From positions 602 to 64,601 of the forward strand of contig JAUYPE010000005.1 of the NCBI GenBank assembly GCA_030697705.1: a stretch of 64,000 nucleotides of DNA. Reading direction: 5' to 3'. This DNA comes from a bacterium (GTDB lineage: Bacteria; Patescibacteriota; Minisyncoccia; Sungbacterales; HO2-52-23). Positions 8,508-29,000 of the stretch are shown in pieces. Made by a program: the position numbers and the translations under genes. Every line of letters starts with the position of its first letter. The stretch's first letter is position 1. A model generated the notes under the pieces. That model made no database searches. It worked only from the letters and a program-made list of their open reading frames with translations, and was not told the origin of the DNA.

Positions 8508-9080
8508 TCACCTCGCTTGGATGCGGGGTTTTTTCTTTTTGCGCGCGACCATAAAAAACATGGGGAGGAAATTGCGCGGTTCAAGCTGGAGATCTATTTT
8601 CGCAAAATACTTCTTGAGCAGGGAACGCATGAGAAGTGAGTACTGATAGATGAGGAATATGCCGTCGGGTGCCAATGCCCGGGCGGTGTCGCGCACCACT
8701 CGCTCGCGTATGCGGGGCGGGAAAAAAGTAAACGGAATACTGGAGAGTACCGCGTCTATGCGAGGGACGCCTATTTTTTTGAGCGTGCGGGAGATGACGG
8801 TAACGTCGCCCGCTACGACGATGAGGCGCGGATCTTTGATAGTCCGAAGTTCGGCAAGAAACTTAGAATTGAGTTCAATAGCAACCACCTTCCCGCCAGC
8901 GGGAAGGTGCCGGAGCAGTTCGCGCGTTACTACTCCGTCGCCCGCGCCATACTCCACGATATATTTCCGTCCGGCGCCAAGTTCGCGCCGGATGCGGCGA
9001 ATGACAAAGCGCGAAGAGGGCGTAAATGCACCGACTTTATAGTCCGTAAGAGCAGTTTTTATATATTTTATTCCTCGCAT
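8508..9080 (-). CDS. class I SAM-dependent methyltransferase
   Basis: Motif I IVEYGAGDGVVT; post-I acidic residue; ~190 aa Rossmann fold. Confidence 0.7.
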   Translation of the reverse strand: MRGIKYIKTALTDYKVGAFTPSSRFVIRRIRRELGAGRKYIVEYGAGDGVVTRELLRHLPAGGKVVAIELNSKFLAELRTIKDPRLIVVAGDVTVISRTLKKIGVPRIDAVLSSIPFTFFPPRIRERVVRDTARALAPDGIFLIYQYSLLMRSLLKKYFAKIDLQLEPRNFLPMFFMVARKKKKPRIQAR

Positions 9081-9225
9081 AATACGAAAGCACCAATTAA
9101 AATACTTTTTCAGTGTATGCGATTATGGCGGAGAGGGCAAATGAGATATGCTTGCACGATAGAGGATTCCATGGAACGAATGATTGGAATTGTTTTTTAA
9201 CAAACTCAAAAAGGAGGGTGAGTTG

Positions 9226-10332
9226 ATGTATCAAGAATATATCAGTCCGTGGCTGGACAGGCGAGACTCGGAGACATGGCACAATCGCGCCAAAGATATC
9301 ATGCACGCGGCGGAGACGACACCGATGACGAGATTCGCACTGGAGCTCGTCGGAAACGGCGGGCGACGCTTCACCGATCCGCGCCTGCAGGTGGAATCTG
9401 CGGGAATTAAGTTTGATAATCCGCTTGTTGTTGCCGCAGGCTGGACCCCCGACGGTAAAGCGTGTCATGCGCTCTACCTGCTCGGTTTTGCGGGCGTTAC
9501 GGTCGGATCGGTACCGGAGTTCGGACAGCCGGGCAATCCGAAACCGCGCCAGTTTATGATCGGACATGGTGTCGCGCTCAACCGTAAGGGATTTGCCAAT
9601 CCGGGTATGAAAGCGGTGAGACGAATGATGAAGCGCTACGAGGGGAGTCGTATTCCCATCGGTATAAGCATTGGTAAAAATAAAGAGGTGTCCGACCGCG
9701 ATGCCCCTGCGGCATATGCGCGTGTCGCGACGTATCTTGCTCCCCTGGCGCGCTGGCTTGTTATCAACGTCTCTTCGCCCAACACGCCGGGACTACGGAA
9801 TCTCCAAGGCAAAGAGCTCCTGACTGATATTATGTGGAATGTTCAAGGTACCGTGCGACAGTCCATGAGTCGTTCGATTCCGATATTCATCAAGATAGAT
9901 CCCGACATGCCGCTCGCGGCGGTTGATGATGTTATGATGGTCGCAGTGGAAACGGGAGCTGCAGGAATCATCGCCGCGAATACGACGGTTGATGAAAGGA
10001 TTAAACGGAAGTACGGGGAACGCTGGGCGAGTGAGCCGGGAGGAGTGAGCGGATCGGATCCCGATTATCGGGATAAGGTGGATGAGAAGATCACGCACAT
10101 TTATCGGAGTGTTGGCAATGAGCTTGATGTCTGGGGTGTCGGCGGTATAGACAGTACGGCATCAGCCATCCGGAAGATCAAGCGTGGCGCGCGCATAGTA
10201 AAAATCCATACCGGTATCCGTACACTCGGTCCGCGCGTTGCCAGTATGATTAATCGCGGCATCGCCGACTATCTCACGCGAGAGGGGATAGCACGCGTGA
10301 CGGACTTAATCGGCACCGACCTCGCCGCATAA
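9226..10332 (+). CDS. pyrD: dihydroorotate dehydrogenase (class 2/quinone-type PyrD-like)
   Basis: SD AAGGAGGGTG then ATG 9226. Motifs NRKGFANPG, SIGKNK, INVSSPNTPGLR, GGI. Confidence 0.8.
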   Translation: MYQEYISPWLDRRDSETWHNRAKDIMHAAETTPMTRFALELVGNGGRRFTDPRLQVESAGIKFDNPLVVAAGWTPDGKACHALYLLGFAGVTVGSVPEFGQPGNPKPRQFMIGHGVALNRKGFANPGMKAVRRMMKRYEGSRIPIGISIGKNKEVSDRDAPAAYARVATYLAPLARWLVINVSSPNTPGLRNLQGKELLTDIMWNVQGTVRQSMSRSIPIFIKIDPDMPLAAVDDVMMVAVETGAAGIIAANTTVDERIKRKYGERWASEPGGVSGSDPDYRDKVDEKITHIYRSVGNELDVWGVGGIDSTASAIRKIKRGARIVKIHTGIRTLGPRVASMINRGIADYLTREGIARVTDLIGTDLAA

Positions 10333-10447
10333 CGGATAGTCCACGGAGGAGAAGATCGCGCCGCACTCATGCTATGAGATGCGGCGTTTTTAGTGCAGTG
10401 TCTTCTCTACCGTGAAAGAACATAATGAGGTACGCTGAAAGAAGATT

Positions 10448-12460
10448 ATGAAAATTACACCTTACGCTAAAAAGGACTTTCACTGGGCGCGATGGAAGCC
10501 GGAGGATATCCGTGCCGTCGTCCCCGCGATTCTTGCCGAAAAAAAACGCCGTTATGCTGAAATCAAAGCTATTCCCGATGCGGAACGGACATTTCAGAAT
10601 ACCGTTGCCGCTCTTGAGCGGGCGGGCTCGGATGTGAGCGACCGCATCCATTGCATTGATTTCTTGATGAATGTGAGTTCGGACGACGCGGTGCGCACCG
10701 CGGCGCATGAGGCGATCAATAAGCTTCGCGCAGAACTTATTGAGCTTGATTACGACAAAGGTATTTGGCGCGCGCTTGTCGCGTATGCAAAAAAACGGCG
10801 GGAGCGGCTTATCGGCGCGGATAAAAAACTTTTTCGCGACACCCTGCGCGACTATCGGCGCATGGGGTTCGTTTTGCCGCCGAAAAAATGCGCTCTCCTC
10901 AAAGAAAACACCAAAAAACTTGCTCAATGGGAAACGTCATTCCAAAAAAATATAAACGACCACTATGATGCGATGGCGCTCCCGCCCGCTGAAACGGACG
11001 GGCTTCCCGTCGCGTATCTTGCCGGACTCAAAAAAGATGCGCGAGGCAATTATCTTGTTTCGCTCGCCTATCCGGATTACTTTCCTTTTCTTCAAAACTC
11101 CCCGCACGAGAACCGACGGCGCGAGCTCATGGACAAATATCTGCATAAGGGCGGTGCGGCGAATATCAGGATTCTCAATAAAATGCTCGCCGTGCGGGAT
11201 AAAAATGCCAAACTGCTCGGCTACCAAAACCATGCGGCATTTCGGACGGAAATAAAAATGGCGAAAAAACCCGAAGCGGTTTTTTCTTTTTTGAACGGTC
11301 TTGTAAAAAAACTGGAAAAAGGAATGGTGCGGGAGCTCTCCGCGGTACGCGCACTGAAGCGCACGATGACAGGCGATTCGCGTGCAGCATTGTTCTACTA
11401 TGACATCGCGTCAAGCGCGGCATCGTACTACATGAACGAACTTAAAAAACAAACTCTCGCGCTTGATGACGAAGAGATTCGCGCCTATTTTCCTTTGAAC
11501 CGCGTTCTTGCCGGCATGTTCGGCATGTATGAAAGATTGCTTTCGGTGAAATTCATCCCGCTCTCCGGCTACCCACTTTGGCACAAAGACGCGATGCTTT
11601 ACGGCATACGCAATAAAAAGGAGAAGGGGAGTGGCATGTGCGCGTACTTCGCCATGGATATGTATCCGCGCGAAGGAAAGTATGGTCATGCCGCGGCATT
11701 TGAAATTTTCGGTGGCCGCGCAGAACAGAGCGGTAAAAATGAGAACTACCGCGCGCCATTTGCTGCACTTGTCTGTAATTTCCGCAAACCCACCAAACAG
11801 GCACCTTCGCTTTTGAGCCATAGCGAAGTAGAGACGCTTTTTCACGAGTTCGGTCACATTATGCATCAAACGCTGACGACCGCGCGCTGGGAATCGCAGT
11901 CCGGCTCCAACGCGGCGCAGGACTTCGTTGAAGCGCCCTCGCAGATGCTGGAGAATTGGGTGTGGGACGAGAGTATTCTTAGACGCCTCTCGGGACACTA
12001 TGAGAATAAAAATAGAAAGCTTCCCAAGCACCTTATCAAAAAACTTGCCATGGCAAAAAATTTCATGGCAAGCTACGATGCAACGCGCCAGTGCGCTCTT
12101 GCTTTGTTTGATATGCGCATTCATACCGAGCGCGTCAAAAAACCCGTTGCGGAACTATTCAGCGAAACCTTCCGCAAATTATTCGGTGCGGATATGCCGT
12201 ACGGTCATCTCTGGCCTGCGGGGTTCGGACACTTGGCGGGGTATGATGCCGGCTACTATGGGTATCTGTGGTCAAAAGTGTATGCGGCGGATATGTTCAC
12301 CCGCTTCGCCCGTACCGGATTATTAGACAAAAAAATGGGCATAGTGTACCGGAAAAATATTTTAGAGGTCGGGTCCAGCCGCGAAGAGCTTGCCTCCCTC
12401 ACCGCGTTCCTCGGCAGAAAACCCAATAATAAGGCATTTCTTAAAGCGCTGGGACTGTAA
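10448..12460 (+). CDS. M3 family zinc metallopeptidase (oligopeptidase A / Dcp-like)
   Basis: 670 aa with HEFGH (LFHEFGHIMHQ) zinc motif and M3-family length/organisation. Confidence 0.85.
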   Translation: MKITPYAKKDFHWARWKPEDIRAVVPAILAEKKRRYAEIKAIPDAERTFQNTVAALERAGSDVSDRIHCIDFLMNVSSDDAVRTAAHEAINKLRAELIELDYDKGIWRALVAYAKKRRERLIGADKKLFRDTLRDYRRMGFVLPPKKCALLKENTKKLAQWETSFQKNINDHYDAMALPPAETDGLPVAYLAGLKKDARGNYLVSLAYPDYFPFLQNSPHENRRRELMDKYLHKGGAANIRILNKMLAVRDKNAKLLGYQNHAAFRTEIKMAKKPEAVFSFLNGLVKKLEKGMVRELSAVRALKRTMTGDSRAALFYYDIASSAASYYMNELKKQTLALDDEEIRAYFPLNRVLAGMFGMYERLLSVKFIPLSGYPLWHKDAMLYGIRNKKEKGSGMCAYFAMDMYPREGKYGHAAAFEIFGGRAEQSGKNENYRAPFAALVCNFRKPTKQAPSLLSHSEVETLFHEFGHIMHQTLTTARWESQSGSNAAQDFVEAPSQMLENWVWDESILRRLSGHYENKNRKLPKHLIKKLAMAKNFMASYDATRQCALALFDMRIHTERVKKPVAELFSETFRKLFGADMPYGHLWPAGFGHLAGYDAGYYGYLWSKVYAADMFTRFARTGLLDKKMGIVYRKNILEVGSSREELASLTAFLGRKPNNKAFLKALGL

Positions 12461-12476
12461 GATATGGTGAATAAAA

Positions 12477-12504
12477 AACCATCCTCATTAATGAGGATGG
12501 TTGA
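12477..12504. terminator. hairpin terminator (AACCATCCTCAT-TA-ATGAGGATGGTT)
   Basis: 12-bp perfect stem after the peptidase stop. Confidence 0.55.
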
Positions 12505-12811
12505 AATCTGTCTTCCTTTGCAGAATATTATTTTTTCTGGCGAGCAACCCGTCGCCATGCCAGCCGCTCTGCGTGATCCAAGCGATCAAGCAGAAAGGTG
12601 AGATAAAAAGGAGCGTTATAGGTAAAATCTATGTGAATATTCATGATGCCTTGACTGGGAGGATTATGCTTAAGATCCTCTTTGATCATCTCAAGGGTGG
12701 TACTTCGCCGTCGTCCAATAACCTCATGATTCATCTCCTTCTCGGCGACACTCTAGATTCAGAACTGTACGAAGCGTAGTAAAAAATGCCGATACTGTCA
12801 ATGCGTGCGGG

Positions 12812-13177
12812 TTGCAGATAGCGGAGCAAATGCCGTATGCTTGGGGTATCAATGGATTCCCTATGGAAGCGCACAAGCCAAAAAAACTAGGAGAACTGCT
12901 GGCAACCGCGATCTGCGGGAACGGGATTTTGAGTTCAACGCTCTATGTCTCGGGGATTGCGATTATTTTTGCCGGTGTATGGGCGCCGCTCGTCATGCTC
13001 GTGGTCGCCGGCGTACTGTGGCTTTACAAAGTCGTGTATACCGAAGTGGTGGAAGCGTTACCGCTTAACGGTGGGGCGTACAATTGTCTCCTGAACGGTA
13101 CGTCAAAAACAATTGCCGCCGCCTACGGCACGCTTTATTTCGTCCGGAAGAAGATCAAAATCCGCCGTAACCGTTAG
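12812..13177 (+). pseudogene. N-terminal fragment (~120 aa) of an APC-family amino-acid permease; truncated
   Basis: KKLGELLATAICGNGILSSTLYVSGIAII...YTEVVEALPLNGGAYNCLLNGTSKTIAAAYG matches the APC TM1-3 consensus, but the ORF stops after 121 aa where ~450 aa would be expected. Confidence 0.55.
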
Positions 13178-13204
13178 GAAAAAAATAGTGCAGAATAACC
13201 TCTT

Positions 13205-14059
13205 ATGTCGTTTTTTATCCCGCTTCTTTCAGCCATATTTCAGGCCGGATCGTTGACTCTGGACAAGATCATCCTTTCATTTCGCCGCATGGGTTGGCGA
13301 GAGTATGTGGGCGTGAGTTTCCCGCTCTCGTTTCTTGTTGTTTTTGCACTTTTTCTCATAGTTCGGCCGCCGCTCACCCTTGCGCTCTTCAGTGGTGGGC
13401 TGGTCTGGCTCCTTGTCGCCTCCATCCTGCTCGCGGCGGGGAGTAATCTCTTTTTTTATTATGCGCTGGATCGCGATCGGCTTGCAGAGCTTGGTATCGC
13501 AGGCCTGCTCAACCGCATTCCGATTATTCTTTTTTCAAGCATATTCTTTGCCGATGAACGACGGTTCGGTATTCTTATCCCCGCGCTTATCGCCAGTACA
13601 GCCATCATTTGGTCCCACTGGGAGCGACATCATCTTAAAATGGCGCGCGGGACGATTATCTTTATCTTGTGGTCATTTCTTGCCGGACCGCTTCTGGCAA
13701 TGACTTCCAAAAGCATCCTCATCGTCATGCATCCCATCAGTTATGACCTCATCCGCACGGGCACCCTGGCGGTTATTTTCGGTCTCGCCTTCTTCCGTCA
13801 TGCGCGGTCTATTCCCCGTGCCGCTGTCCCGCTGCTCCTTGCAACGAACACGCTTACCTCGCTCTCTAATATCCTTTTTTTCTTCAGCTACCAACTTTCC
13901 GGCATTGTCTATACCTCGCTCCTCTTCTCGTTCGAGCCGCTCCTGGTACACTTCAGTGCCGTTTTTTTTCTTAAAGAACGTCTGCACTGGAAAAAATCGA
14001 TTGCTTTCGCCGTTGTCCTCCTCTCCATTCTCGCCGCGCAGTTCTATGGCGCACGCTAG
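13205..14059 (+). CDS. EamA/DMT-superfamily transporter
   Basis: 284 aa, ~10 TM segments, duplicated EamA-like halves. Confidence 0.7.
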   Translation: MSFFIPLLSAIFQAGSLTLDKIILSFRRMGWREYVGVSFPLSFLVVFALFLIVRPPLTLALFSGGLVWLLVASILLAAGSNLFFYYALDRDRLAELGIAGLLNRIPIILFSSIFFADERRFGILIPALIASTAIIWSHWERHHLKMARGTIIFILWSFLAGPLLAMTSKSILIVMHPISYDLIRTGTLAVIFGLAFFRHARSIPRAAVPLLLATNTLTSLSNILFFFSYQLSGIVYTSLLFSFEPLLVHFSAVFFLKERLHWKKSIAFAVVLLSILAAQFYGAR

Positions 14060-14064
14060 ACTCT

Positions 14065-14150
14065 GGGGATAACTTAACTATCCCCCTTGTGGGGATAACT
14101 TAACTATCCCCCTTGTGGGGATAACTTAACTATCCCCCTTGTGGGGATAA
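14065..14150. repeat. tandem array, 3.3 copies of 26-bp unit GGGGATAACTTAACTATCCCCCTTGT; each unit is internally palindromic (GGGGATA...TATCCCC)
   Basis: Exact repeats at 14065-14090, 14091-14116 and 14117-14142, plus a partial 14143-14150. No unique spacers, so not CRISPR. Confidence 0.9.
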
Positions 14151-14192
14151 GTGGTGCGAGACAGTGTTTGTCGCGCATGGTATTATTACGGG

Positions 14193-14456
14193 ATGAAGCC
14201 CGTCACGCTGGAAGTCCTCGCCTCGCCCGGATGCCACACCTGCAAGGCGTTTGAAGAATTTTGGCACACGATAGAGAAAGAATGGCCGAATGTTTTATTC
14301 ACGCACATTGAGGTAACAACACCCGAGGGTGTTGCGATGGCGGGAAAGTATATGATCTTCACCTCGCCGGGCATTATCCTTAATGGCGAATTGTTCGCCG
14401 CTGGCGGATTTGATAAAGAAAAGTTTTTGGCAAAAATTAAAGAACTTTCGCAATGA
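14193..14456 (+). CDS. thioredoxin-fold (glutaredoxin-like) protein with CxxC (SPGCHTC)
   Basis: MKPVTLEVLASPGCHTCKAFEEFWHTIEKEWPNV... Confidence 0.65.
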   Translation: MKPVTLEVLASPGCHTCKAFEEFWHTIEKEWPNVLFTHIEVTTPEGVAMAGKYMIFTSPGIILNGELFAAGGFDKEKFLAKIKELSQ

Positions 14457-14857
14457 AACTATCCTCCGCACGACTTCCCGAATGGTCGCTTCGGCTCGGA
14501 CTTGCCGCTACCTACCTCTATTCCGGGCTTGATCTGGTGCGTCATCCTACGGCATGGTACTGGGCATTGCGACCCTTGCCTGATTTTTTTCAGAGTATCA
14601 TACATACGGTCGGGACGGATCGCTATTTGCGATTGCAAGGCGCGAGTGAACTTGTGTTTGCCGCTGTTTTTCTTGCGTGGTTCCTGCCTTTAAAAATTGT
14701 CCGCATTGTTGCCGCTCTTACCGCACTTGAAATGCTCGCCATTCTCCTTATGGTGGGCACAAACGGCGAGACATTCCGCGATATCGGGATTTTGGGCGCT
14801 GCCGCCGGTCTTTTTTTTCTCATAAAAAAAACTACCAATGCAATGCCCTCAATGTAA
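14453..14857 (+). CDS. DoxX-family membrane protein
   Basis: 134 aa, 4 TM; LAATYLYSGLDLVRHP...; typical DoxX size and hydropathy. 4-nt overlap with the upstream thioredoxin-fold gene. Confidence 0.6.
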   Translation: MKLSSARLPEWSLRLGLAATYLYSGLDLVRHPTAWYWALRPLPDFFQSIIHTVGTDRYLRLQGASELVFAAVFLAWFLPLKIVRIVAALTALEMLAILLMVGTNGETFRDIGILGAAAGLFFLIKKTTNAMPSM

Positions 14858-15377
14858 CCAACCGCTTGAAACGAAGCACCACCAGGAGCTGGATCTTCAT
14901 CACTGCATACAATGCGGGGGGTTGTGGTTTTCTCATAACGAACTGTCCGAGGCGATTGCGAAGGAGGATCCCGTTTTACAATGGATTGCGACGGATATTT
15001 TCAGTGATCCTCAACGCTTTCAGGGGACGGTAAGCTCGTGTCGGTGTCCTGTGGACAAACTGCCCCTTCGCACGCTAACCTATGACGGAACTTCGGTGAA
15101 GGTGGATGTCTGCGCGCTGTGCAAAGGAATATGGTTGGACAAGGGTGAGTTTGAGAGCATTCGTGCAAAATTAAAAGAGCGAATCGCCGCAGAAGACCTC
15201 CCGAGCTTCATACGTTACTTCGGCAAAGAGATGGCGGAGGTGGTAACCGGAGAGAAGGGGATAGGGGAGGAGTTGGCGGACATTGGTGCTGTAGGGAAAT
15301 TATTGGAATACCGTATTCTTGCCGAGTGGCCAATTCTTGAGGATATCCTCTTCGTCGTGGAAGAAAATATTGGTTAA
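14838..15377 (+). CDS. zinc-ribbon protein with two zf-TFIIB-like CxxC...CxxC modules
   Basis: MQCPQCNQPLE...HHCIQCGGLWFSHNEL and CRCPVDKLP...VCALCKGIWLDKGEF. Confidence 0.55.
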   Translation: MQCPQCNQPLETKHHQELDLHHCIQCGGLWFSHNELSEAIAKEDPVLQWIATDIFSDPQRFQGTVSSCRCPVDKLPLRTLTYDGTSVKVDVCALCKGIWLDKGEFESIRAKLKERIAAEDLPSFIRYFGKEMAEVVTGEKGIGEELADIGAVGKLLEYRILAEWPILEDILFVVEENIG

Positions 15378-15414
15378 GTTAAGATGGCGTATAGCCACCG
15401 TACCTCAAAAAGCC

Positions 15415-17679
15415 ATGCCCGAACAAACACAAACTCCCGGAGCAAGGATCATACTTGCCGCGAGCGCGGTGGTGCTTCTTGCCGTCACGGTCATCGGGCT
15501 TGCATGGTTTTTTACGACGACGCTTGATGTGAATGATGCGGCGAGTGGACTTGAGCAGTCCGGTGCTACGATTGGATTGGGTTGGTTTATTTTTAGCTTT
15601 GCCGCAGGCCTCACGATGATCGTTTTGCCGTGTACACTTCCCCTTGCCTTCGTCATCGTCCCGCTCACGATGAGCAAGGGACCAAGAAAAGGTCTCGGTA
15701 TCGCGCTCTCTTTCGGTCTTGGTGTCGCCATCACCTTGAGCTTGTACGGCATTGCCGCCGCCACCATCGGTAAAGTCGCCATCGGCACACTGGGCGCCCC
15801 ACTAGAAGTCGTTAAAAACTGGCTCTACTTCGGTGCTGGTTCGTTTGCCTATCTCTTTGCGCTCGGCGGACTGGGGCTCATCAGCTTTCGCATGCCGAGC
15901 TACACTGGCTCGGCCCCCGCATTTATTCAGAAACAGCAGGATTATCTTAAAGCGCTTTTGCTCGGTCTTTTTCTCGGTAACGTCGGCGTGGGATGCCCGC
16001 ATCCGGCAACGCCGTTTATTCTGGGTCGCATCGCCGTCTCGGAAAGCATCACCTCCGGCTGGCTGCTTTTCTTCGTCCATGCCGTCGGACGCGTTATCCC
16101 GCTCTTGCTTCTCGCCGTGTTAGCACTTCTCGGCGTCAATGGCCTCTCGTGGCTCGTCACGCGCAAAGACAAGATAGAACGCGCCACGGGGTGGGGGATG
16201 GTCTTTGTCGCCGGATTTATTTTGATCCTTGGTCTCTTCAGCCATGACTGGTGGGTCAACTCCGGCCAACACACGCTCCTTGAGGAGATCACGCAAGAAC
16301 AATATTTCTTGGGAAAAATCATTAGGAACTTCAATTTCGCCGGTGTACCGCATCCGCATGGCATAGAAACGGGGACCGGTTTGTTCGGACTTCCTTTATG
16401 GCTTGGCAACTGGGCGCTTGCGGCGTTATGGATAGTGCCGTTGTGGTGGTATTATCAGCGCAAGAAAAAAACTATGGCGACGCTTTCTGAAGAAGATAAA
16501 AAATGCGAGGAGCGCATTTTGCCGTGGCGATTGTGGCTGAATGTATCACTCTCCGTGCTTATCGCCCTTGTCGTCATACGGGTTTTGCCGGATAGATTTT
16601 TGAATCAGTTTGGTTTTATAGACGCACCAATGGAGAATGTGCTCGTGCATGAAGACAAGCACGGGGAAGGTGGCGAACATAGTGCTGCTGTGTATCGCGA
16701 GGCAAAAGATGTGCAAATGGGATTAAGTTCTGATTGGTCTGATCTGACGTCCATTTTTGGACCCATTACGACCGGCTCCACTACGCCGCTCATATTTTTG
16801 ACGAGTGAGAAACCGGCTGGTGCGGTAATTTCATCCCCGGACTTAGAGAAAGAGCATACGAAGTATATGCATGTCATTGGTGTTCGTGATGATCTTAATG
16901 AATTTTTTCATGTTCATCCCGATGAAGATTATCCGGGAGAGTGGCTTGCGAGCCATATCTTTGCCAAACCCGGTCGCTACAAAATCTGGTCTGAAATAAG
17001 AAAAGACGGAACGAATTATGTATTTGGACAAGAGCCGATTGAGGTGACGGGCGAGGGCGATGTCGGGCAAGGTATTGAGCCGATATTTGTGAACACGACG
17101 ATTGCGGGAGATTATCTGGTTGAATTTCTTCACGATCCACTTATCGTGCAAAAACAAGAAGCGCATATTGGCTTTACTATTCGTGATGCGAAGGGAAGAG
17201 AGGTACCTCTTGAGCCGTATATTGCCGCCTCCATGCACTTGAATATCATCAAGAGCGACTGGAAGGAGGAGATTCATGTCCATCCTGAAGAAAATGGGCA
17301 CATGACGCAGAACTCCGGCTTGCCCACATTTATTTCGGTAGCCCTAGCCAATGCACAGGATGCGCATGATGATGATTCCTTTGATGATGATCACGAGGAT
17401 ATTCCTTTGCGCGAAAGCTCGGGTGCGGCGGAACAGGCGCAAGTCCATTTCACGGTGGCATTCCCCGAACCCGGTCTTTACAAGGCATTTGCACAGTTCC
17501 GTCCATCTGGGACAACTCTTTCTCCCGAGGAGGCGGTTGTCGCCAGTTTTTGGATCAAGGTGGAAGAAAAAGCCCCTTCCGCAAATCCTCGCGTTGTCCT
17601 TGCTCTTGCCTCGCTTGTCCTTATCGCATTGTTGTCCTGGGGTATAAAAAAATATCTGGAACCGACAAGTGCACCATGA
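15415..17679 (+). CDS. CcdA/DsbD_2-type transmembrane thiol-disulfide transporter fused to a large extracytoplasmic His-rich tandem-domain region (HVHPDEDY / HVHPEENGH)
   Basis: N-terminal TM domain with VLPCTLPLAFVIVPL and a second Cys region (GVGCPHPATPF). The C-terminal ~380 aa has two repeats each carrying MHxI/L...HVHP(D/E)E plus an acidic DAHDDDSFDDDHED stretch and a final TM anchor. Confidence 0.7.
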   Translation: MPEQTQTPGARIILAASAVVLLAVTVIGLAWFFTTTLDVNDAASGLEQSGATIGLGWFIFSFAAGLTMIVLPCTLPLAFVIVPLTMSKGPRKGLGIALSFGLGVAITLSLYGIAAATIGKVAIGTLGAPLEVVKNWLYFGAGSFAYLFALGGLGLISFRMPSYTGSAPAFIQKQQDYLKALLLGLFLGNVGVGCPHPATPFILGRIAVSESITSGWLLFFVHAVGRVIPLLLLAVLALLGVNGLSWLVTRKDKIERATGWGMVFVAGFILILGLFSHDWWVNSGQHTLLEEITQEQYFLGKIIRNFNFAGVPHPHGIETGTGLFGLPLWLGNWALAALWIVPLWWYYQRKKKTMATLSEEDKKCEERILPWRLWLNVSLSVLIALVVIRVLPDRFLNQFGFIDAPMENVLVHEDKHGEGGEHSAAVYREAKDVQMGLSSDWSDLTSIFGPITTGSTTPLIFLTSEKPAGAVISSPDLEKEHTKYMHVIGVRDDLNEFFHVHPDEDYPGEWLASHIFAKPGRYKIWSEIRKDGTNYVFGQEPIEVTGEGDVGQGIEPIFVNTTIAGDYLVEFLHDPLIVQKQEAHIGFTIRDAKGREVPLEPYIAASMHLNIIKSDWKEEIHVHPEENGHMTQNSGLPTFISVALANAQDAHDDDSFDDDHEDIPLRESSGAAEQAQVHFTVAFPEPGLYKAFAQFRPSGTTLSPEEAVVASFWIKVEEKAPSANPRVVLALASLVLIALLSWGIKKYLEPTSAP

Positions 17680-17682
17680 TCC

Positions 17683-17795
17683 TCCCTCTCTGTCATGCAG
17701 AGCGAAGCGACTGCCAGCAGGCGTCCCGTGAGGGAAGCATCCCGATACCTACAGGTATCTAACGGGATTCCTCGTTTCACTCGGAATGACGGGGG
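17683..17795. repeat. intergenic modular palindromic element, family 'GTCATTCCGAG...CGAGGAATCCCGT' (copy A; motif in minus orientation at 17763-17793 plus shared module GAGCGACTGCCAGYAGGCGTCCCGTGAGGGA)
   Basis: Sequence shared with copies at 21536-21610, 34786-34920, 50341-50482 and 31191-31312. Confidence 0.6.
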
Positions 17796-17801
17796 TTCTC
17801 T

Positions 17802-18239
17802 ATGAACAAATACATTATTCTCATCATCCTCGCCGTTGTTATTATAGGCGGAGGCATCGGCTACCGCGTCTATTTTTTGCCGGAAACATCGGTTCCCGTG
17901 ACGACAGGTAAGACCCGCGAGATTACGATTACCGCAAAAAGAGATGAGTGGCGTTTTGATCCTGAATTCGTGGAGGTTGACCGCGGCGACAAGGTAATCC
18001 TTCACATGGTGAATGAGGATGAGTACGACCACGGTATCGCGATTGACAAGTACGGCATCTCCCAGCGCATGCCGCCCAACGCCACCACGCATATTGAATT
18101 CGTCGCGACACAAGAAGGCGACTTTCCCCTTTACTGCTCGGTACCCTGCGGTGAGGGCGAGGTGGATGGAAAACATCGTGGGCATGTGGACATGGTGGGC
18201 AAGCTCCATGTCAGGAGTTTAATTTCCAACACACAATAA
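17802..18239 (+). CDS. cupredoxin-like (plastocyanin/azurin-fold) copper-binding protein, N-terminal TM anchor
   Basis: HMVNEDEYDHGIAI...FPLYCSVPCGEGEVDGKHRGHVDM gives an H...C...H...M ligand pattern. Confidence 0.65.
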   Translation: MNKYIILIILAVVIIGGGIGYRVYFLPETSVPVTTGKTREITITAKRDEWRFDPEFVEVDRGDKVILHMVNEDEYDHGIAIDKYGISQRMPPNATTHIEFVATQEGDFPLYCSVPCGEGEVDGKHRGHVDMVGKLHVRSLISNTQ

Positions 18240-18251
18240 AATCAAGGCGCC

Positions 18252-18551
18252 ATGATTTCATTTCTGAAACCGAATTTTACGAAGATCATATTGTCCCTTG
18301 CACTTTTCTTATTCATTCTGCCGGGTTTTGAGACGATTTGCGTCGATTTTGAATTTGGCGGATATTGTAGTCCTACAGTAGTTCCTCTCGGTGGCACTTT
18401 CTTTCTCATAAAAGTTGTGGGCCAAGAATTATCATATTTGATAGCACAGAAATGGTTTATGCGAGACATCCTTTATTTCCCCGTTGCCTCATATTTTTTC
18501 TCATGTGTAATTGTTTTTGTTGTGCAGAGGATAAGCACAAGAAAAAAATAA
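18252..18551 (+). CDS. small hydrophobic hypothetical protein (AT-rich ORF)
   Basis: 99-aa ORF with 2-3 TM segments; no SD evident. Confidence 0.3.
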   Translation: MISFLKPNFTKIILSLALFLFILPGFETICVDFEFGGYCSPTVVPLGGTFFLIKVVGQELSYLIAQKWFMRDILYFPVASYFFSCVIVFVVQRISTRKK

Positions 18552-25334: not shown

Positions 25335-25458
25335 TACTTGCGTTAAGGAGAGGTTACATAGGTGGTCTCGTGCGCACGATTGTTCCCGATTTGTCCAAGA
25401 TTCCGAGTTTTTAAGAACGAAGAAATCTTGGCTCACAAATCACAATCCCGTACAAACC

Positions 25459-25545
25459 GGAGGCGTCGCATAGTGGCCTAGTGCGCTCGCTTGGAAAGCG
25501 AGTAGACCTTAACCGGTCTCGGAGGTTCGAATCCTCCCGCCTCCG
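25459..25545 (+). tRNA. tRNA-Ser (anticodon GGA), 87 nt, long variable arm, discriminator G, no encoded CCA
   Basis: Acceptor GGAGGCG/CGCCTCC; anticodon stem CUCGC/GCGAG with loop UUGGAAA; variable arm AGACC-UUAACC-GGUCU; T-arm GGAGG-UUCGAAU-CCUCC. Confidence 0.9.
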
Positions 25546-25612
25546 GTTTGTACGGGAGAAAGCGTGTCTTAGGTTTTAGATACCTGTCAATACACTCATT
25601 TTATGTAGAATT

Positions 25613-25852
25613 ATGAAAGTGTGGAATTTTATAAAAACTCCAGAATTTTGGATAACCATAGTTTTAGTCCCGCTGATTAGTGGGCTTATTGTAAACTACT
25701 TTTCCAAAAAACCTACGGCGGTCGAGGAAACCGAAAATAATGGTGGGGACATAATTATCAAAGCAGGTGATGGGGGTCCTCATGGTAATGGTGGAAATGT
25801 TAATATTGGACCAGGGACATATAAAGCAGGCGATGTAATTCAGAAAAAATAG
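25613..25852 (+). CDS. small hypothetical protein: N-terminal TM helix + Gly-rich tail (GDGGPHGNGGNVNIGPGTYKAGD)
   Basis: AT-rich ORF, first gene after the tRNA. Confidence 0.35.
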   Translation: MKVWNFIKTPEFWITIVLVPLISGLIVNYFSKKPTAVEETENNGGDIIIKAGDGGPHGNGGNVNIGPGTYKAGDVIQKK

Positions 25853-25893
25853 ACCCGACCCATATATCCCAAATTGACGATTCAATAGAAAAC

Positions 25894-26190
25894 ATGAAGA
25901 AAGAAAATATAATTATCTATCAGGCGAAAAACGGGGCGATAGAGCTTCGGGGGGATTTTAATCGGGACACTCTGTGGGCAACACAGGCGCAGATCGTTGA
26001 TCTTTTTGGTGTGGACCAGTCAGTGGTATCCCGCCATATTAAAAACATATTGAGGGACGGTGAAATTGAGGAAAAAAGCAATATGCAAAAAATGCACATT
26101 GCACATTCGGACAAGATTGCAGCGTCTTATTCTCTGGGTATCATCCTTGTAGTCGGATGTCAAGCCTATAAAAAAAGAATACCCGTATAA
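25894..26190 (+). pseudogene. N-terminal fragment of a RhuM-family protein (truncated at 98 aa)
   Basis: IIIYQAKNGAIELRGDFNRDTLWATQAQIVDLFGVDQSVVSRHIKNILRDGEIEEKSN matches the conserved RhuM N-terminus. Full-length members are ~330 aa. Confidence 0.5.
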
Positions 26191-26294
26191 CTATTTTTAT
26201 AAGCTGTGCGGTTGATCATAATGAACCTATAAAATCAATTGATCAAACATCTCAAGCCATTTTAAACGTCTTTTCAACATTTCTTTCAACATCT

Positions 26295-26786
26295 TTGATG
26301 CATATGGAAAATGGCGAAGAAAAATTTACAAAATGCAGAGAAGACGCAGAGAAGTACTATAAGATGCTTACCACGGTGTGGTGCCCTTATCTGCAGGACA
26401 GCGTTCATTTCAATGTCGAAGGATTTGAGCATTTGCTTTTTAAGTCGTGGAACAAAAACAGAACTCAAATAGAACAATATACACGCTTGCGCTTGCTTCG
26501 TTTTGCACCCGAGATAATTTCTAAATCTCATACCTTGCAAGAGTATGATGAGCGATCCATCCTCGTCCGGCAAAAAATAAATTCCCGATGGGAGCGGCGA
26601 ATGAAAAACGTTCAATACTATATCTTTGTTGCTATTATAAAATCCGTGCGCTTGAAGATCGTCGTTAAGGAAATTGAGGGTGGTAACAAATTTTTCTATA
26701 GTTTATATCCCTCATGGAGAATTGAGGAGCAGACGAATGGCAATAAGAAAAAAGTGTTTTACTCGGGTAATCCGGAGGAGGATTGA
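26295..26786 (+). CDS. hypothetical protein (163 aa), AT-rich, no recognisable domain
   Basis: ORF only. Confidence 0.35.
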   Translation: MMHMENGEEKFTKCREDAEKYYKMLTTVWCPYLQDSVHFNVEGFEHLLFKSWNKNRTQIEQYTRLRLLRFAPEIISKSHTLQEYDERSILVRQKINSRWERRMKNVQYYIFVAIIKSVRLKIVVKEIEGGNKFFYSLYPSWRIEEQTNGNKKKVFYSGNPEED

Positions 26787-27091
26787 AATCAAAAACACCG
26801 CTTTCGCGGTGGCTTTGATGGTACTTGGCTACGGTTTATGAATTGACCGTGAGAGGACCAAAGTCCTCACAAGCACCGCGCTTATAGTAGTCCTTTGGGA
26901 GGAAAAAGTCAAAAGTTGTCCACAGGGGTGGGTGGGGGGTCAGTAGATGCCGCCCACTATGTCCATCTTTGAATTTAGATTATAGATATTCCCTATGTCT
27001 ATGAGAGCAGTACAGCGTTTGAGTTGTTGCATTTTTTGCAACAGCTGAGATAGACAGAAAAAATTACTCGTATAGCTCACTATAAAACATC

Positions 27092-27853
27092 ATGTCCCAG
27101 TATTACAACGCACAGCGGGTGAGGGGGTTGTATGATCCGCATGCGGCTGAGCCGTTTAAATTGTCGCGGTCAAAAATCGATCTTTTTTTGGAGTGCCCGC
27201 GGTGTTTTTATTTTGACCGGCGATTAGGTGTGGGAAGGCCGCCGGGATTTCCTTTTGCCTTGAACTCTGCAGTAGACCATCTCCTCAAACAAGAGTTTGA
27301 TATTCACCGCGCGAAGGGGAGCAAGCATCCATTGATTGAGGAGTACGGTGTTGACGCGCGCCCGGTTCCGCATGAGGATCTTGAAAAATGGCGGCATAAC
27401 TTTACGGGTGTTCAGTATCTGCACCAACCCACGAATTTTCTCGTATTCGGTGCGATTGACGATCTGTGGCAAAATGCGGCGGGGGAGTATATCGTTGTGG
27501 ATTATAAGGCGACGGCGAAAAACGAAGCAATCACGGAGCTTAATAAAACATGGCACGGTGGCTACAAGCGCCAGATGGAGGTGTATCAATGGCTTCTGCG
27601 CCGCAACGGCTATCATGTATCCAATACAGGTTATTTCGTCTATTGCAACGGGAAAACCGACCGCGAGGCGTTTGATGCCAAGCTTGAGTTTGACGTTACG
27701 CTGATCGGTTACAACGGAAACGACTCGTGGGTGGAAGGTACGCTTGCCAAAGTGCATATGTGTCTGAACACGGATGCCATCCCCGATGCCAATCCCGAGT
27801 GCGATTATTGCGCCTATGTCCGGACGATCAACGCACAGGCGAGAGGTCAATAA
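27092..27853 (+). CDS. PD-(D/E)XK nuclease, Cas4/RecB-like with Fe-S cysteines (orphan; no cas genes in window)
   Basis: N-terminal Cys (ECPRCFYF); catalytic VVDYKA (D-x-K); QxxxY (KRQMEVYQWLL); C-terminal Cys triad C-x12-CDYC. Confidence 0.65.
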   Translation: MSQYYNAQRVRGLYDPHAAEPFKLSRSKIDLFLECPRCFYFDRRLGVGRPPGFPFALNSAVDHLLKQEFDIHRAKGSKHPLIEEYGVDARPVPHEDLEKWRHNFTGVQYLHQPTNFLVFGAIDDLWQNAAGEYIVVDYKATAKNEAITELNKTWHGGYKRQMEVYQWLLRRNGYHVSNTGYFVYCNGKTDREAFDAKLEFDVTLIGYNGNDSWVEGTLAKVHMCLNTDAIPDANPECDYCAYVRTINAQARGQ

Positions 27854-28044
27854 AATAATAATACCCGTATCCGGAGGAGGAACTTTTGAAACAGTCGGAC
27901 GGACAAAGGAAAACGTCGGAAATAAAAAACCGTCCCCCCTTTTTTTAAAAAAAGGGAGAGACGGCATAGTTTGCACGAGCGCGCTTGACCGGCTACCGGG
28001 CCACTGTCTTTCGAAGATCCCTACCCGGCTTGTCGGACAGACCG

Positions 28045-28275
28045 TCAATACCGGATTCTAAAAAACGCTTTATCCATTTGTATATGATTTCTACCCATAT
28101 TCAGCGTACGGGCAATATCGGTGATTGATCGTTTTTCTACGGCGAAGAGAAGAATAATACGCCCCCTCTTGACGCGACGGGTGGGAGCTGTACGGGAGCG
28201 CACAAGTGAGCCTAGTTCCTTCTTCTCCTCGGGTGTTAAAGAAATCTTGAGCGCCGTTTTCAGTCCTTGCGTCAT
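28045..28275 (-). pseudogene. transposase N-terminal HTH fragment (IS630/Tc1-like), remnant
   Basis: LTPEEKKELGSLVRSRTAPTRRVKRGRIILLFAVEKRSITDIARTLNMGRNHIQ is a typical IS630-type HTH; only 76 aa, with no DDE domain following. Confidence 0.45.
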
Positions 28276-28885: not shown

Positions 28886-29000
28886 AAAAATAATACTGGA
28901 AAAATTAAAAGCGGGGGATATGATTCGTATCGGCGCACCCTCGCGGTTATTGGCGCGGATCGTATCGGAAGTGCGTGTAATTATAGTCACTCGTACGCTC

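Follow-up and report, generated by a model that had tools for sequence, protein, structure and literature searches.

A conserved, predicted structured small RNA faces ORF163 in an AT-rich patch next to a rearranged tRNA-Ser locus of a Sungbacterales bacterium

We analyzed a stretch of 64,000 nucleotides from a Patescibacteriota bacterium (Sungbacterales HO2-52-23; GenBank assembly GCA_030697705.1, contig JAUYPE010000005.1, positions 602 to 64,601, forward strand; hereafter, the window), with emphasis on the interval from 25.4 to 28.3 kb that begins at a gene for tRNA-Ser(GGA). The main finding is that ORF163, an open reading frame (ORF) for a small basic protein, is followed on the opposite strand by a gene for a structured small RNA (sRNA), and it is highly probable that the two form a real protein-sRNA pair. 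The sRNA, which is found in neither the annotation nor Rfam, and its pairing with ORF163 are previously undescribed. The interval is not one element; it consists of a 1.4-kb AT-rich variable patch between the rearranged tRNA-Ser locus and resident core genes. Our favoured account, with a probability of roughly 0.6, combines a tRNA rearrangement scar, dead gene fragments, a selfish, toxin-antitoxin (TA)-like module of ORF163 and the sRNA, and an unrelated resident nuclease. A first-pass annotation made from the sequence alone had suggested that an undescribed system, if present, would consist of ORF163 and the Cas4-like nuclease encoded downstream; a system was indeed found at ORF163, but the partner is the sRNA, not the nuclease.

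Homologues of the local proteins come from metagenome-assembled genomes (MAGs) of the candidate phyla radiation (CPR)/Patescibacteria, and a partial DUF1189 protein with 100% identity is labelled Candidatus Sungbacteria. The nearest relative with usable sequence, and the sole sister genome available for comparison, is a groundwater contig (L001), in which the core genes are 83–84% identical to those of the window at the DNA level. tRNA pairing and gene adjacency were counted in a set of 84 related loci, mostly from CPR, and the sRNA and ORF163 were compared across 11 independent loci including the window.

A predicted structured small RNA convergent with ORF163

The module comprises the following features (coordinates here and below are those of the window):

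26304–26786, plus strand: ORF163, the protein half of the module (160 aa from the ATG at 26304, pI 9.2)
26791–26811, no strand assigned: sRNA terminator, hairpin CACCGCTTTCGCGGTG at 26796–26811 with an A-run (terminator scan of the minus strand, single-sequence fold)
26817–26880, minus strand: core of the Y-shaped sRNA, with the P1 closing stem, P2 hairpin and P3 hairpin (RNAalifold, 11 loci; cmsearch 79.1 bits, E = 2e-22)
26884–26912, minus strand: sigma-70-type promoter of the sRNA, TTGACT, 17 nt, TACTAT (promoter scan)
26916–26924, plus strand: DnaA-box-like 9-mer TTGTCCACA, just upstream of the sRNA promoter

In 11 of the 11 independent loci, a motif of ~65 nt was found right after the stop codon of the ORF163-family gene, on the convergent strand; these include L074, although its protein is only 29% identical. 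The motif folds into a three-way junction with a 12-bp closing stem and two hairpins, a structure also seen in single-sequence folds. Compensatory changes were observed for 14 of the 23 pairs across the 11 loci, and 91.7% of the cells in the alignment are paired, compared to 33–51% when the partners are slid; none of 500 shuffles reached the observed values. The balance of 32 G-U cells against 3 A-C cells assigns the structure to the minus strand. When a covariance model of the sRNA was run over the window and 90 loci (1.45 Mb), matches appeared only beside ORF163 homologues (E from 1e-15 to 1e-26). No Rfam 15 family matched the sRNA at the gathering score, and permissive scans yielded at most 17.5 bits, terminator-type noise relative to cut-offs of 40–60.

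The predicted promoter is similarly conserved, with a −35 element TTGAC(A/T) whose offset is shared by 10 of the 11 loci, L074 having it one turn closer, and a TAnnnT-like −10 element 16–17 nt further on. The predicted ends are of different types: a U-tract comes right after the closing stem in 4 loci, a separate hairpin with a U-tract is found in the window, L004, L074, L089, L093 and L094, and L086 has a hairpin with a shorter U-run. On the plus strand of the window, an A-run lies on the 5' side of the hairpin CACCGCTTTCGCGGTG, equivalent to a T-run on the minus strand, and this hairpin possibly terminates transcription in both directions. In 7 of the 11 loci (the window, L004, L088, L089, L093, L094 and L096), the 70 nt upstream of the sRNA contain the DnaA-box-like sequence TTATCCACA with at most one mismatch, compared to 2.9% of random 70-nt windows. 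These sites fall into three placements and orientations, namely, upstream of the −35 element either way, or within the spacer, and suggest that expression of the sRNA could be under DnaA control.

The same structure might be a 3'-untranslated region or terminator element of the ORF163 mRNA, on the plus strand, rather than a separate antisense gene; in every locus it directly follows the stop codon, and in some loci the ORF163 mRNA must cross it to reach the next gene. On the plus strand, however, the 32 G-U cells become A-C mismatches, so that pairing drops from 91.7% to 80.2%. Moreover, the TTGAC(A/T) box is on the minus strand at a nearly constant distance in all 11 loci, and the U-tract follows the structure on the minus strand only. 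We consider a 3'-terminal mRNA element to be quite improbable.

The first-pass annotation listed ORF163 as an unknown 163-aa ORF from position 26295; the ORF is present, with the start most likely at the ATG at 26304, for a product of 160 aa. The family includes ~205 close clusters at 90% identity and 1128 clusters in a profile search, all of them stand-alone proteins of ~150–165 aa that are currently annotated as 'hypothetical'. These proteins are uniformly basic (pI 9.05–10.3), and G40, H43, R53, Q79 and P136 are invariant. Comparison of ORF163 with Pfam LPD3 (PF18798) gave E = 6.4e-5 and 23.6 bits, under the gathering cut-off of 27, with nearly the whole model covered; several homologues carry a precomputed PF18798 match. 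The structural model is a confident alpha+beta fold (predicted local distance difference test score, pLDDT, 86) that has no fold match in the PDB and is similar to an LPD3 segment from a polyvalent phage protein (probability 0.92, template modelling (TM) score 0.43). ORF163 has no PADLOC match. Judging from profile and model comparisons, ORF163 appears to be a distant relative of LPD3, not a confirmed member. In the part of Iyer et al. 2017 (PMC5512222) drawn on here, LPD3 is a domain of polyvalent proteins of phages and conjugative elements, and is given neither an assigned function nor an RNA partner. LPD3 sits in giant multidomain proteins, whereas ORF163 stands alone; both occur in conflict-type contexts.

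Homologues of ORF163 were found at diverse sites: between the mod and res genes of a type III system, between dnaK and dnaJ, after grpE, after rplJ-rplL, between a pseudouridine synthase gene (rluA) and porA, after clpB, and beside serine recombinases. In L094, the homologue immediately precedes pheT and is itself preceded by pheS and an unknown gene of 814 aa. As a separate observation, this 814-aa ORF (L094, 2447–4891), located between pheS and the ORF163 homologue, has no Pfam match and is a second insertion in the pheS-pheT pair. Between the window and L001, the block 26152–27151, which spans ORF163, the sRNA and the upstream region of the nuclease gene, is 94–99% identical to L001 9075–10060. 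Because this block is embedded in flanking core genes with 83–84% identity, the jump points to a probable recent exchange; the scattered sites, the sporadic distribution and the low GC content agree with this interpretation.

The neighbouring nuclease and the AT-rich patch

All ORFs named in the first-pass annotation are present in the ORF list. Those surrounding the module are as follows:

25613–25852, plus strand: singleton ORF of 79 aa (one-member cluster), hydrophobic at the N-terminus and Gly-rich in its tail
25894–26190, plus strand: RhuM-like N-terminal fragment, dead (PADLOC models PDC-S05/PDC-S23, E down to 1e-23)
27092–27853, plus strand: stand-alone RecB/Cas4-fold PD-(D/E)XK nuclease, a resident conserved gene (PF12705, 4.3e-13)
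28045–28275, minus strand: truncated transposase-type helix-turn-helix (HTH) gene (weak HTH_23 match)

The product of the 27092 gene belongs to the PD-(D/E)XK superfamily, with a PF12705 match (E = 4.3e-13) above the Pfam cut-off. In an alignment of 30 nuclease sequences (A2), D123/D124, D137-Y-K139, Q161...Y165 and six cysteines are invariant, and the structural model (pLDDT 81) matches AdnA, Cas4, MGME1 and EXO5 with a Foldseek probability of 1.00. The Cas4 models themselves score below their cut-offs (TIGR00372 of NCBIfam, 31.5 vs. 65 bits; PF01930 of Pfam, 15.3 vs. 22.7). The nuclease shares with Cas4, AddB, AdnA, EXO5 and MGME1 the PD-(D/E)XK core and the cysteines at both domain ends, but it is a stand-alone protein that has no helicase partner. 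The family consists of more than 8000 protein clusters at 74–89% identity, with homologues in at least 592 species genomes, mostly CPR but also Nitrospiraceae, Chromatiales and others; there were no matches in phage collections and one match, at 47%, in plasmid collections. The gene is usually tightly packed among co-directional genes, and its neighbours vary by locus.

All-against-all clustering of 1380 ORFs detected no neighbour that recurs among the 83 nuclease-bearing loci, which makes a conserved cas partner improbable. In the neighbourhoods covered, nothing of a CRISPR or cas context was seen near the nuclease, no specific search for cas1/cas2 or CRISPR arrays having been made, and a repeat scan of the window between 24 and 30 kb showed no tandem array. 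The pairing of ORF163 with the nuclease, for which co-occurrence in other genomes had been proposed as a check, was rejected: by tblastn over the 84 loci, an ORF163 homologue stands beside the nuclease only in L001 and, weakly, in L074 (1 of the 80 other loci), and one Sungbacteria MAG carries the two genes on separate contigs (L004 and L014). The nuclease gene is thus resident and conserved over a wide range of genomes, and is neither an orphan defence gene nor a partner of ORF163. Of its earlier description as an orphan Fe-S Cas4/RecB-like nuclease, the PD-(D/E)XK fold stands, whereas the orphan defence role does not, given the native GC content and the wide spread of the family. The enzyme would process DNA ends and would adjoin the ORF163 module by happenstance.

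Several other observations concern this gene. Its identity is nearly flat, at 73–80% to MAGs labelled as very different CPR phyla and 65–72% to genomes of Nitrospiraceae, Chromatiales, Deltaproteobacteria, Scalindua and Omnitrophota, which would reflect either extreme constraint or frequent horizontal transfer. In L010, L017, L023 and L028, a minus-strand tRNA-Ser gene and two shared small genes lie ~5 kb downstream of the nuclease, forming a local synteny block. Most of the nuclease gene is also covered by a 274-aa ORF on the minus strand (27224–28048), which, given the strong conservation of the plus-strand gene, is almost certainly spurious.

The first-pass annotation also noted a drop in GC content downstream of the tRNA. 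The drop is real but confined to 25558–26925, where GC content is 39.6% compared to 50.4% for the whole window; the nuclease gene, at 51.0%, has the native composition. Within the patch, the 79-aa ORF (25613) has no Pfam, NCBIfam, PHROG or PADLOC match, and L001 has an unrelated 84-aa ORF in its place. The truncated RhuM-family gene at 25894 had been recognized correctly: the ORF, named 'virulence protein' in GenBank, ends at 98 aa and covers only the first 90–96 positions of the ~330-aa RhuM-like PADLOC models PDC-S05 and PDC-S23 (model positions 1–96). PF13310 does not match it, and it is not a full-length RhuM protein (~330 aa with a C-terminal domain); the same truncation is found in L001. 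Elsewhere, in L029 (Parcubacteria GW2011_GWA2_36_10), four RhuM-N-terminal-like ORFs surround a nuclease homologue (9037–18493).

The HTH gene on the far side of the nuclease had been described as an IS630-like remnant. It is a truncated transposase-type HTH gene, but neither the ORF in the window (76 aa) nor that in L001 (97 aa) has the DDE catalytic domain that would make it an IS630-type transposase. The L001 orthologue is intact and matches HTH_23, HTH_28, HTH_29, HTH_32 and LZ_Tnp_IS481; relative to L001, the window has a 2-nt gap inside the gene ('CATTTG--TATATG'). Like the RhuM N-terminal fragment, the HTH gene is a dead remnant. A 21-nt direct repeat, ATAAAA(A/T)AA(G/T)AATACCCGTAT (26168–26188 and 27850–27870), brackets ORF163, the sRNA and the nuclease gene; it was rejected as a cassette border since the two sites are only 13/21 alike in L001, and the repeat is probably due to chance.

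The first-pass annotation interpreted the 25.4–28.3 kb interval as a decayed tRNA-targeting integrative element or defence islet, with ORF163 and the Cas4-like nuclease as a two-protein system. The low-GC patch right after the tRNA accords with this interpretation, as do the transposase-type HTH remnant and the RhuM-like fragment, which matches PADLOC candidate-defence models; RhuM-like ORFs occur near the nuclease in 4 of 80 other loci, and in L074 a distant ORF163 relative is directly upstream of the nuclease. However, the ORFs between 18.5 and 38.6 kb, which encode a P-type ATPase, LemA, HtpX, TauE, DUF1189, NUDIX, an ABC transporter, RpoB and RpoC in addition to the genes of the patch, include no integrase or recombinase, and no second copy of the 22-nt tRNA 3' end was found. 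The search for such a repeat, which by eye had given nothing up to 28.3 kb, was extended to the full 64 kb allowing up to 3 mismatches in 22, with the same outcome. With neither an integrase nor a tRNA 3'-end repeat present, the sequence lends no support to a tRNA-targeted island. Furthermore, the nuclease has native GC content, at least 592 host species and unrelated neighbours, 9 other sites with an ORF163 homologue have no adjoining nuclease, and in one MAG the two are on separate contigs.

The gene order in the sister genome also argues against an integrative element. Only three DUF1189 homologues exist for a comparison of synteny, and two of these, on the new contigs L097 and L098, stop at that gene. 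The only relative with sequence past the tRNA, L001, keeps the order of the window: LemA, HtpX, TauE, DUF1189, tRNA-Ser, small ORF, RhuM fragment, ORF163, nuclease, HTH, NUDIX, ABC transporter. The arrangement that would have indicated an insertion, with the tRNA directly before NUDIX/ABC genes, is not seen there. Of what the first-pass annotation named as speaking for a native region, the shared gene order and the broad conservation of the nuclease were both found, whereas the GC content of the patch is not normal. Altogether, the integrative element with a two-protein system is already largely refuted, and the chance that it is correct appears very small. Two further points concern the relatives. 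L097 and L098 are independent assemblies, and both break at or inside the DUF1189 gene, just ahead of the tRNA region, which may reflect strain heterogeneity in the variable patch. L001 carries a gene for a 208-aa HAD hydrolase (11846–12472) between the NUDIX and ABC transporter genes that is missing in the window, where the gap is 115 nt (28886–29000).

The tRNA-Ser locus

At the upstream edge of the patch, four features were recognized:

25347–25382, plus strand: probable relic of the 5' half of tRNA-Ser, GGAGAGGTTACATAGGTGGTCTCGTGCGCACGATTG, starting 13 nt past the DUF1189 stop codon
25446–25457, plus strand: 5' arm of the inverted repeat, leader side, TCCCGTACAAAC, perfect complement of 25546–25557
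25459–25545, plus strand: tRNA-Ser(GGA), CCA not encoded (Rfam RF00005, 55.8 bits; ARAGORN gives 25458–25546)
25546–25557, plus strand: 3' arm of the inverted repeat, trailer side, GTTTGTACGGGA, perfect complement of 25446–25457

The two 12-mers reported to flank the tRNA as exact complements are present, and the helix is even longer: C25458 pairs with the discriminator base G25545, so that the extension amounts to 13 bp beyond the 7-bp acceptor stem, and a repeat finder returns a perfect uninterrupted inverted repeat of 20 bp (25446–25465 with 25538–25557). The predicted fold of the tRNA precursor, including the 20-bp helix, has an energy of −76.3 kcal/mol (z = −7.1 vs. shuffles). With a probability of ~6e-8 for a perfect 12-bp extension in exact register, the repeat is not due to chance. 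Further copies of the arm 12-mer were not found in the 64-kb window allowing one mismatch, and the reading of the arms as a miniature inverted-repeat transposable element was rejected, there being no target-site duplication and no second copy. A borderline outer inverted repeat also surrounds the tRNA (25391–25414 and 25633–25656; 20/24 with one gap, score 26 vs. a shuffled maximum of 24).

The tRNA-Ser of L001 is identical at 87 of 87 positions, yet lacks the leader-trailer complementarity, both flanks being unrelated to those of the window. Among the 84 related loci, 29 other tRNAs show at most 4 bp of pairing past the acceptor stem, which rules out an extended stem as a general CPR habit. 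A metagenome scan for the exact tRNA sequence recovered one other public contig, already known, and no further relatives. Because the extension is absent in L001 and in the 29 other tRNAs, it is neither a lineage habit nor conserved at this locus and, from these comparisons, appears to be specific to the lineage of the window.

Of 35 aligned bases in the sequence GGAGAGGTTACATAGGTGGTCTCGTGCGCACGATTG, 27 are the same as in tRNA positions 1–35; the best local alignment runs from 25357 to 25382, and its score was reached in a fraction 0.0005 of 2000 shuffles. Its offset of 13 nt from the DUF1189 stop codon is identical to that of the intact tRNA in L001; in the window, the spacer between this stop codon and the tRNA is 124 nt, and the working copy is located 112 nt downstream of the ancestral position. 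Thus, GGAGAGGTTACATAGGTGGTCTCGTGCGCACGATTG is probably the decayed 5' half of an ancestral tRNA-Ser copy, and from the relic at the ancestral position together with the shifted working copy, it follows that the locus was rearranged in this lineage.

In the scenario we favour, the ancestral copy right after the DUF1189 gene would have decayed to the 5'-half relic, a functional copy lying downstream, and the 13-bp helix would be a by-product of the local rearrangement. Because the helix is perfect and has sharp ends, the most economical route may be a template switch during replication that was seeded on the existing acceptor-stem palindrome; the helix would then be simply trimmed off during precursor maturation. 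Template switching that homogenizes the arms of inverted repeats is an established mutational route in bacteria (PMC5941160, PMC7202029), and one quasipalindrome template switch is enough to turn a short, imperfect inverted repeat into a perfect, longer repeat whose ends are sharp (PMC7202029, PMC5941160, PMC8604942). The sharp-ended, lineage-specific, 13-bp extension of an acceptor-stem palindrome resembles such events; it differs in scale, in that the described cases usually fix few bases inside a quasipalindrome already present, whereas here 12–13 new paired bases would have arisen across a 72-nt spacer.

Three observations weigh against this scenario. The Rfam tRNA covariance model does not detect the relic; with a single sister genome for comparison, no intermediate of a template switch is available; and, if the helix were as old as the relic with its 23% divergence, 24 unmutated arm positions would be expected with a probability of only 0.77^24, or ~0.002. 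The helix must therefore be either young or under selection, and selection would favour a functional helix. The extension could, then, be a selected precursor-processing or regulatory helix, e.g. a point of entry for RNase III, by which the tRNA would be released from a long DUF1189 read-through transcript that the rearrangement brought about, for which the coexistence of a perfect helix with a 23%-diverged relic (~0.2% if of equal age) counts in favour. Likewise, in the spacer after the DUF1189 stop codon the promoter scan found no promoter suited to the tRNA, which makes a leader of 124 nt likely, and 20 bp approaches the length needed by RNase III. However, a leader-trailer duplex normally hinders RNase P, the helix is missing in L001 despite the identical tRNA as well as in the 29 other tRNAs, and the single instance precludes any judgement of covariation. 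A selected helix thus seems unlikely, at odds of perhaps one in five. Of the two origins offered in the first-pass annotation, a processing structure or an insertion scar, a rearrangement scar fits better, and a conserved processing signal less so. The tRNA hairpin is of minor significance, a local oddity probably left by a one-off rearrangement.

The nature of the module

In the proposed mechanism, the sRNA (core of ~65 nt, transcript of ~90 nt in the window) would be made from a sigma-70 promoter of its own, in the direction of the ORF163 3' end, and transcription would end at the terminator abutting the ORF163 stop codon. The sRNA would restrain, or act together with, the basic and possibly RNA-cleaving ORF163 protein, the two forming a selfish TA-like pair. 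We lean towards the module being selfish or mobile; a TA-like mechanism, which is proposed by analogy with known systems, is a more tentative idea, possible but on balance doubtful.

The closest analogy is with convergent type I TA loci, such as par of pAD1 (Fst mRNA/RNA II) and txpA/RatA and bsrG/SR4 of B. subtilis. The resemblance to these loci lies in two opposed genes, one for a protein and one for a small RNA, that run up to a single terminator or have it in common, in a separate RNA promoter that looks constitutive, and in a sporadic distribution and a selfish nature, the latter presumed for the module described here. With respect to antisense overlap, the predicted end of the convergent sRNA, which has a promoter and terminator of its own, is next to the ORF163 stop codon. 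The toxins of the pAD1 par, txpA and bsrG type are hydrophobic peptides of less than 60 aa; ORF163, basic (pI 9.2), soluble and 160 aa long, is not a small hydrophobic toxin. The sRNA also folds into a three-way junction supported by covariation, for which a pure antisense RNA has no need, and in loci with a separate terminator the overlap between the two RNAs may be minimal. SymE/SymR and RalR/RalA are type I systems with soluble nuclease toxins, and SymR overlaps the 5' end of its target; these resemble the module in combining a soluble, nucleic-acid-directed toxin with a small RNA at the same locus, but have no sequence or fold relation to ORF163. As in type III TA systems (ToxIN, CptIN), a structured RNA could neutralize the protein by direct binding, for which the conserved RNA fold and the basic protein would be suited. 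The type III antitoxins, however, are tandem repeats on the same strand, upstream of the toxin gene and processed by the toxin, whereas here a single RNA unit lies downstream on the opposite strand. Together, a basic protein of 160 aa and an RNA with a covarying three-way junction are more in keeping with a partnership of protein and RNA than with simple antisense pairing.

Several results run counter to a mobile, TA-like module. Complementarity between the P3 loop of the sRNA and the start region of its own ORF is no better than that against other loci. Where the terminator is separate, the two transcripts may meet only at the hairpin, which weakens a simple antisense model. No empty insertion site was recovered, so that mobility rests on the scattered contexts and the identity jump, and neither ORF163 nor the sRNA motif was found in phage, plasmid or IMG/VR collections.

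The absence from phage and plasmid collections is also what would be expected if ORF163 and the sRNA were a vertically inherited regulatory pair of the host, e.g. a DnaA-controlled RNA chaperone or regulator. Such a role is consistent with the DnaA-box-like site at the sRNA promoter in 7 of the 11 loci, with the presence of two loci in the hrcA-grpE-dnaK-dnaJ operon, and with the orientation of the gene, which in 9 of the 11 loci points the same way as the genes on either side and in L095 the same way as the only visible neighbour. The distribution, however, is sporadic, with ~205 clusters at 90% identity against the more than 8000 that a comparable search gave for the nuclease, and the site differs in every genus sampled. 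Furthermore, identity to L001 reaches 96–99% within flanks of 83–84%, one copy splits the type III mod-res pair, and another is beside serine recombinases. We therefore regard a host regulatory pair as improbable, albeit less so than a 3'-terminal mRNA element. A further-reaching version of the selfish module, in which ORF163 and the sRNA would represent a new class of minimal ribonucleoprotein selfish elements of CPR bacteria, with an LPD3-like protein that uses or is gated by its 65-nt RNA and with RNA expression tied to DnaA, spreading from genome to genome and entering essential operons without a recognizable transposase or integrase, is speculative and would be about as improbable as the host regulatory pair.

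For the protein family, the immediate consequence is that ~1100 clusters of 'hypothetical' proteins gain a dedicated structured RNA outside Rfam, in a module that is found mid-operon, at dnaK-dnaJ, mod-res and the pheS-pheT region. If the module is a TA or RNA-dependent conflict system, it would provide the first functional handle on the LPD3 domain of phage and plasmid polyvalent proteins and would add an RNA-controlled system to the very sparse CPR catalogue, in the form of a compact, easily synthesized pair of ~650 bp.

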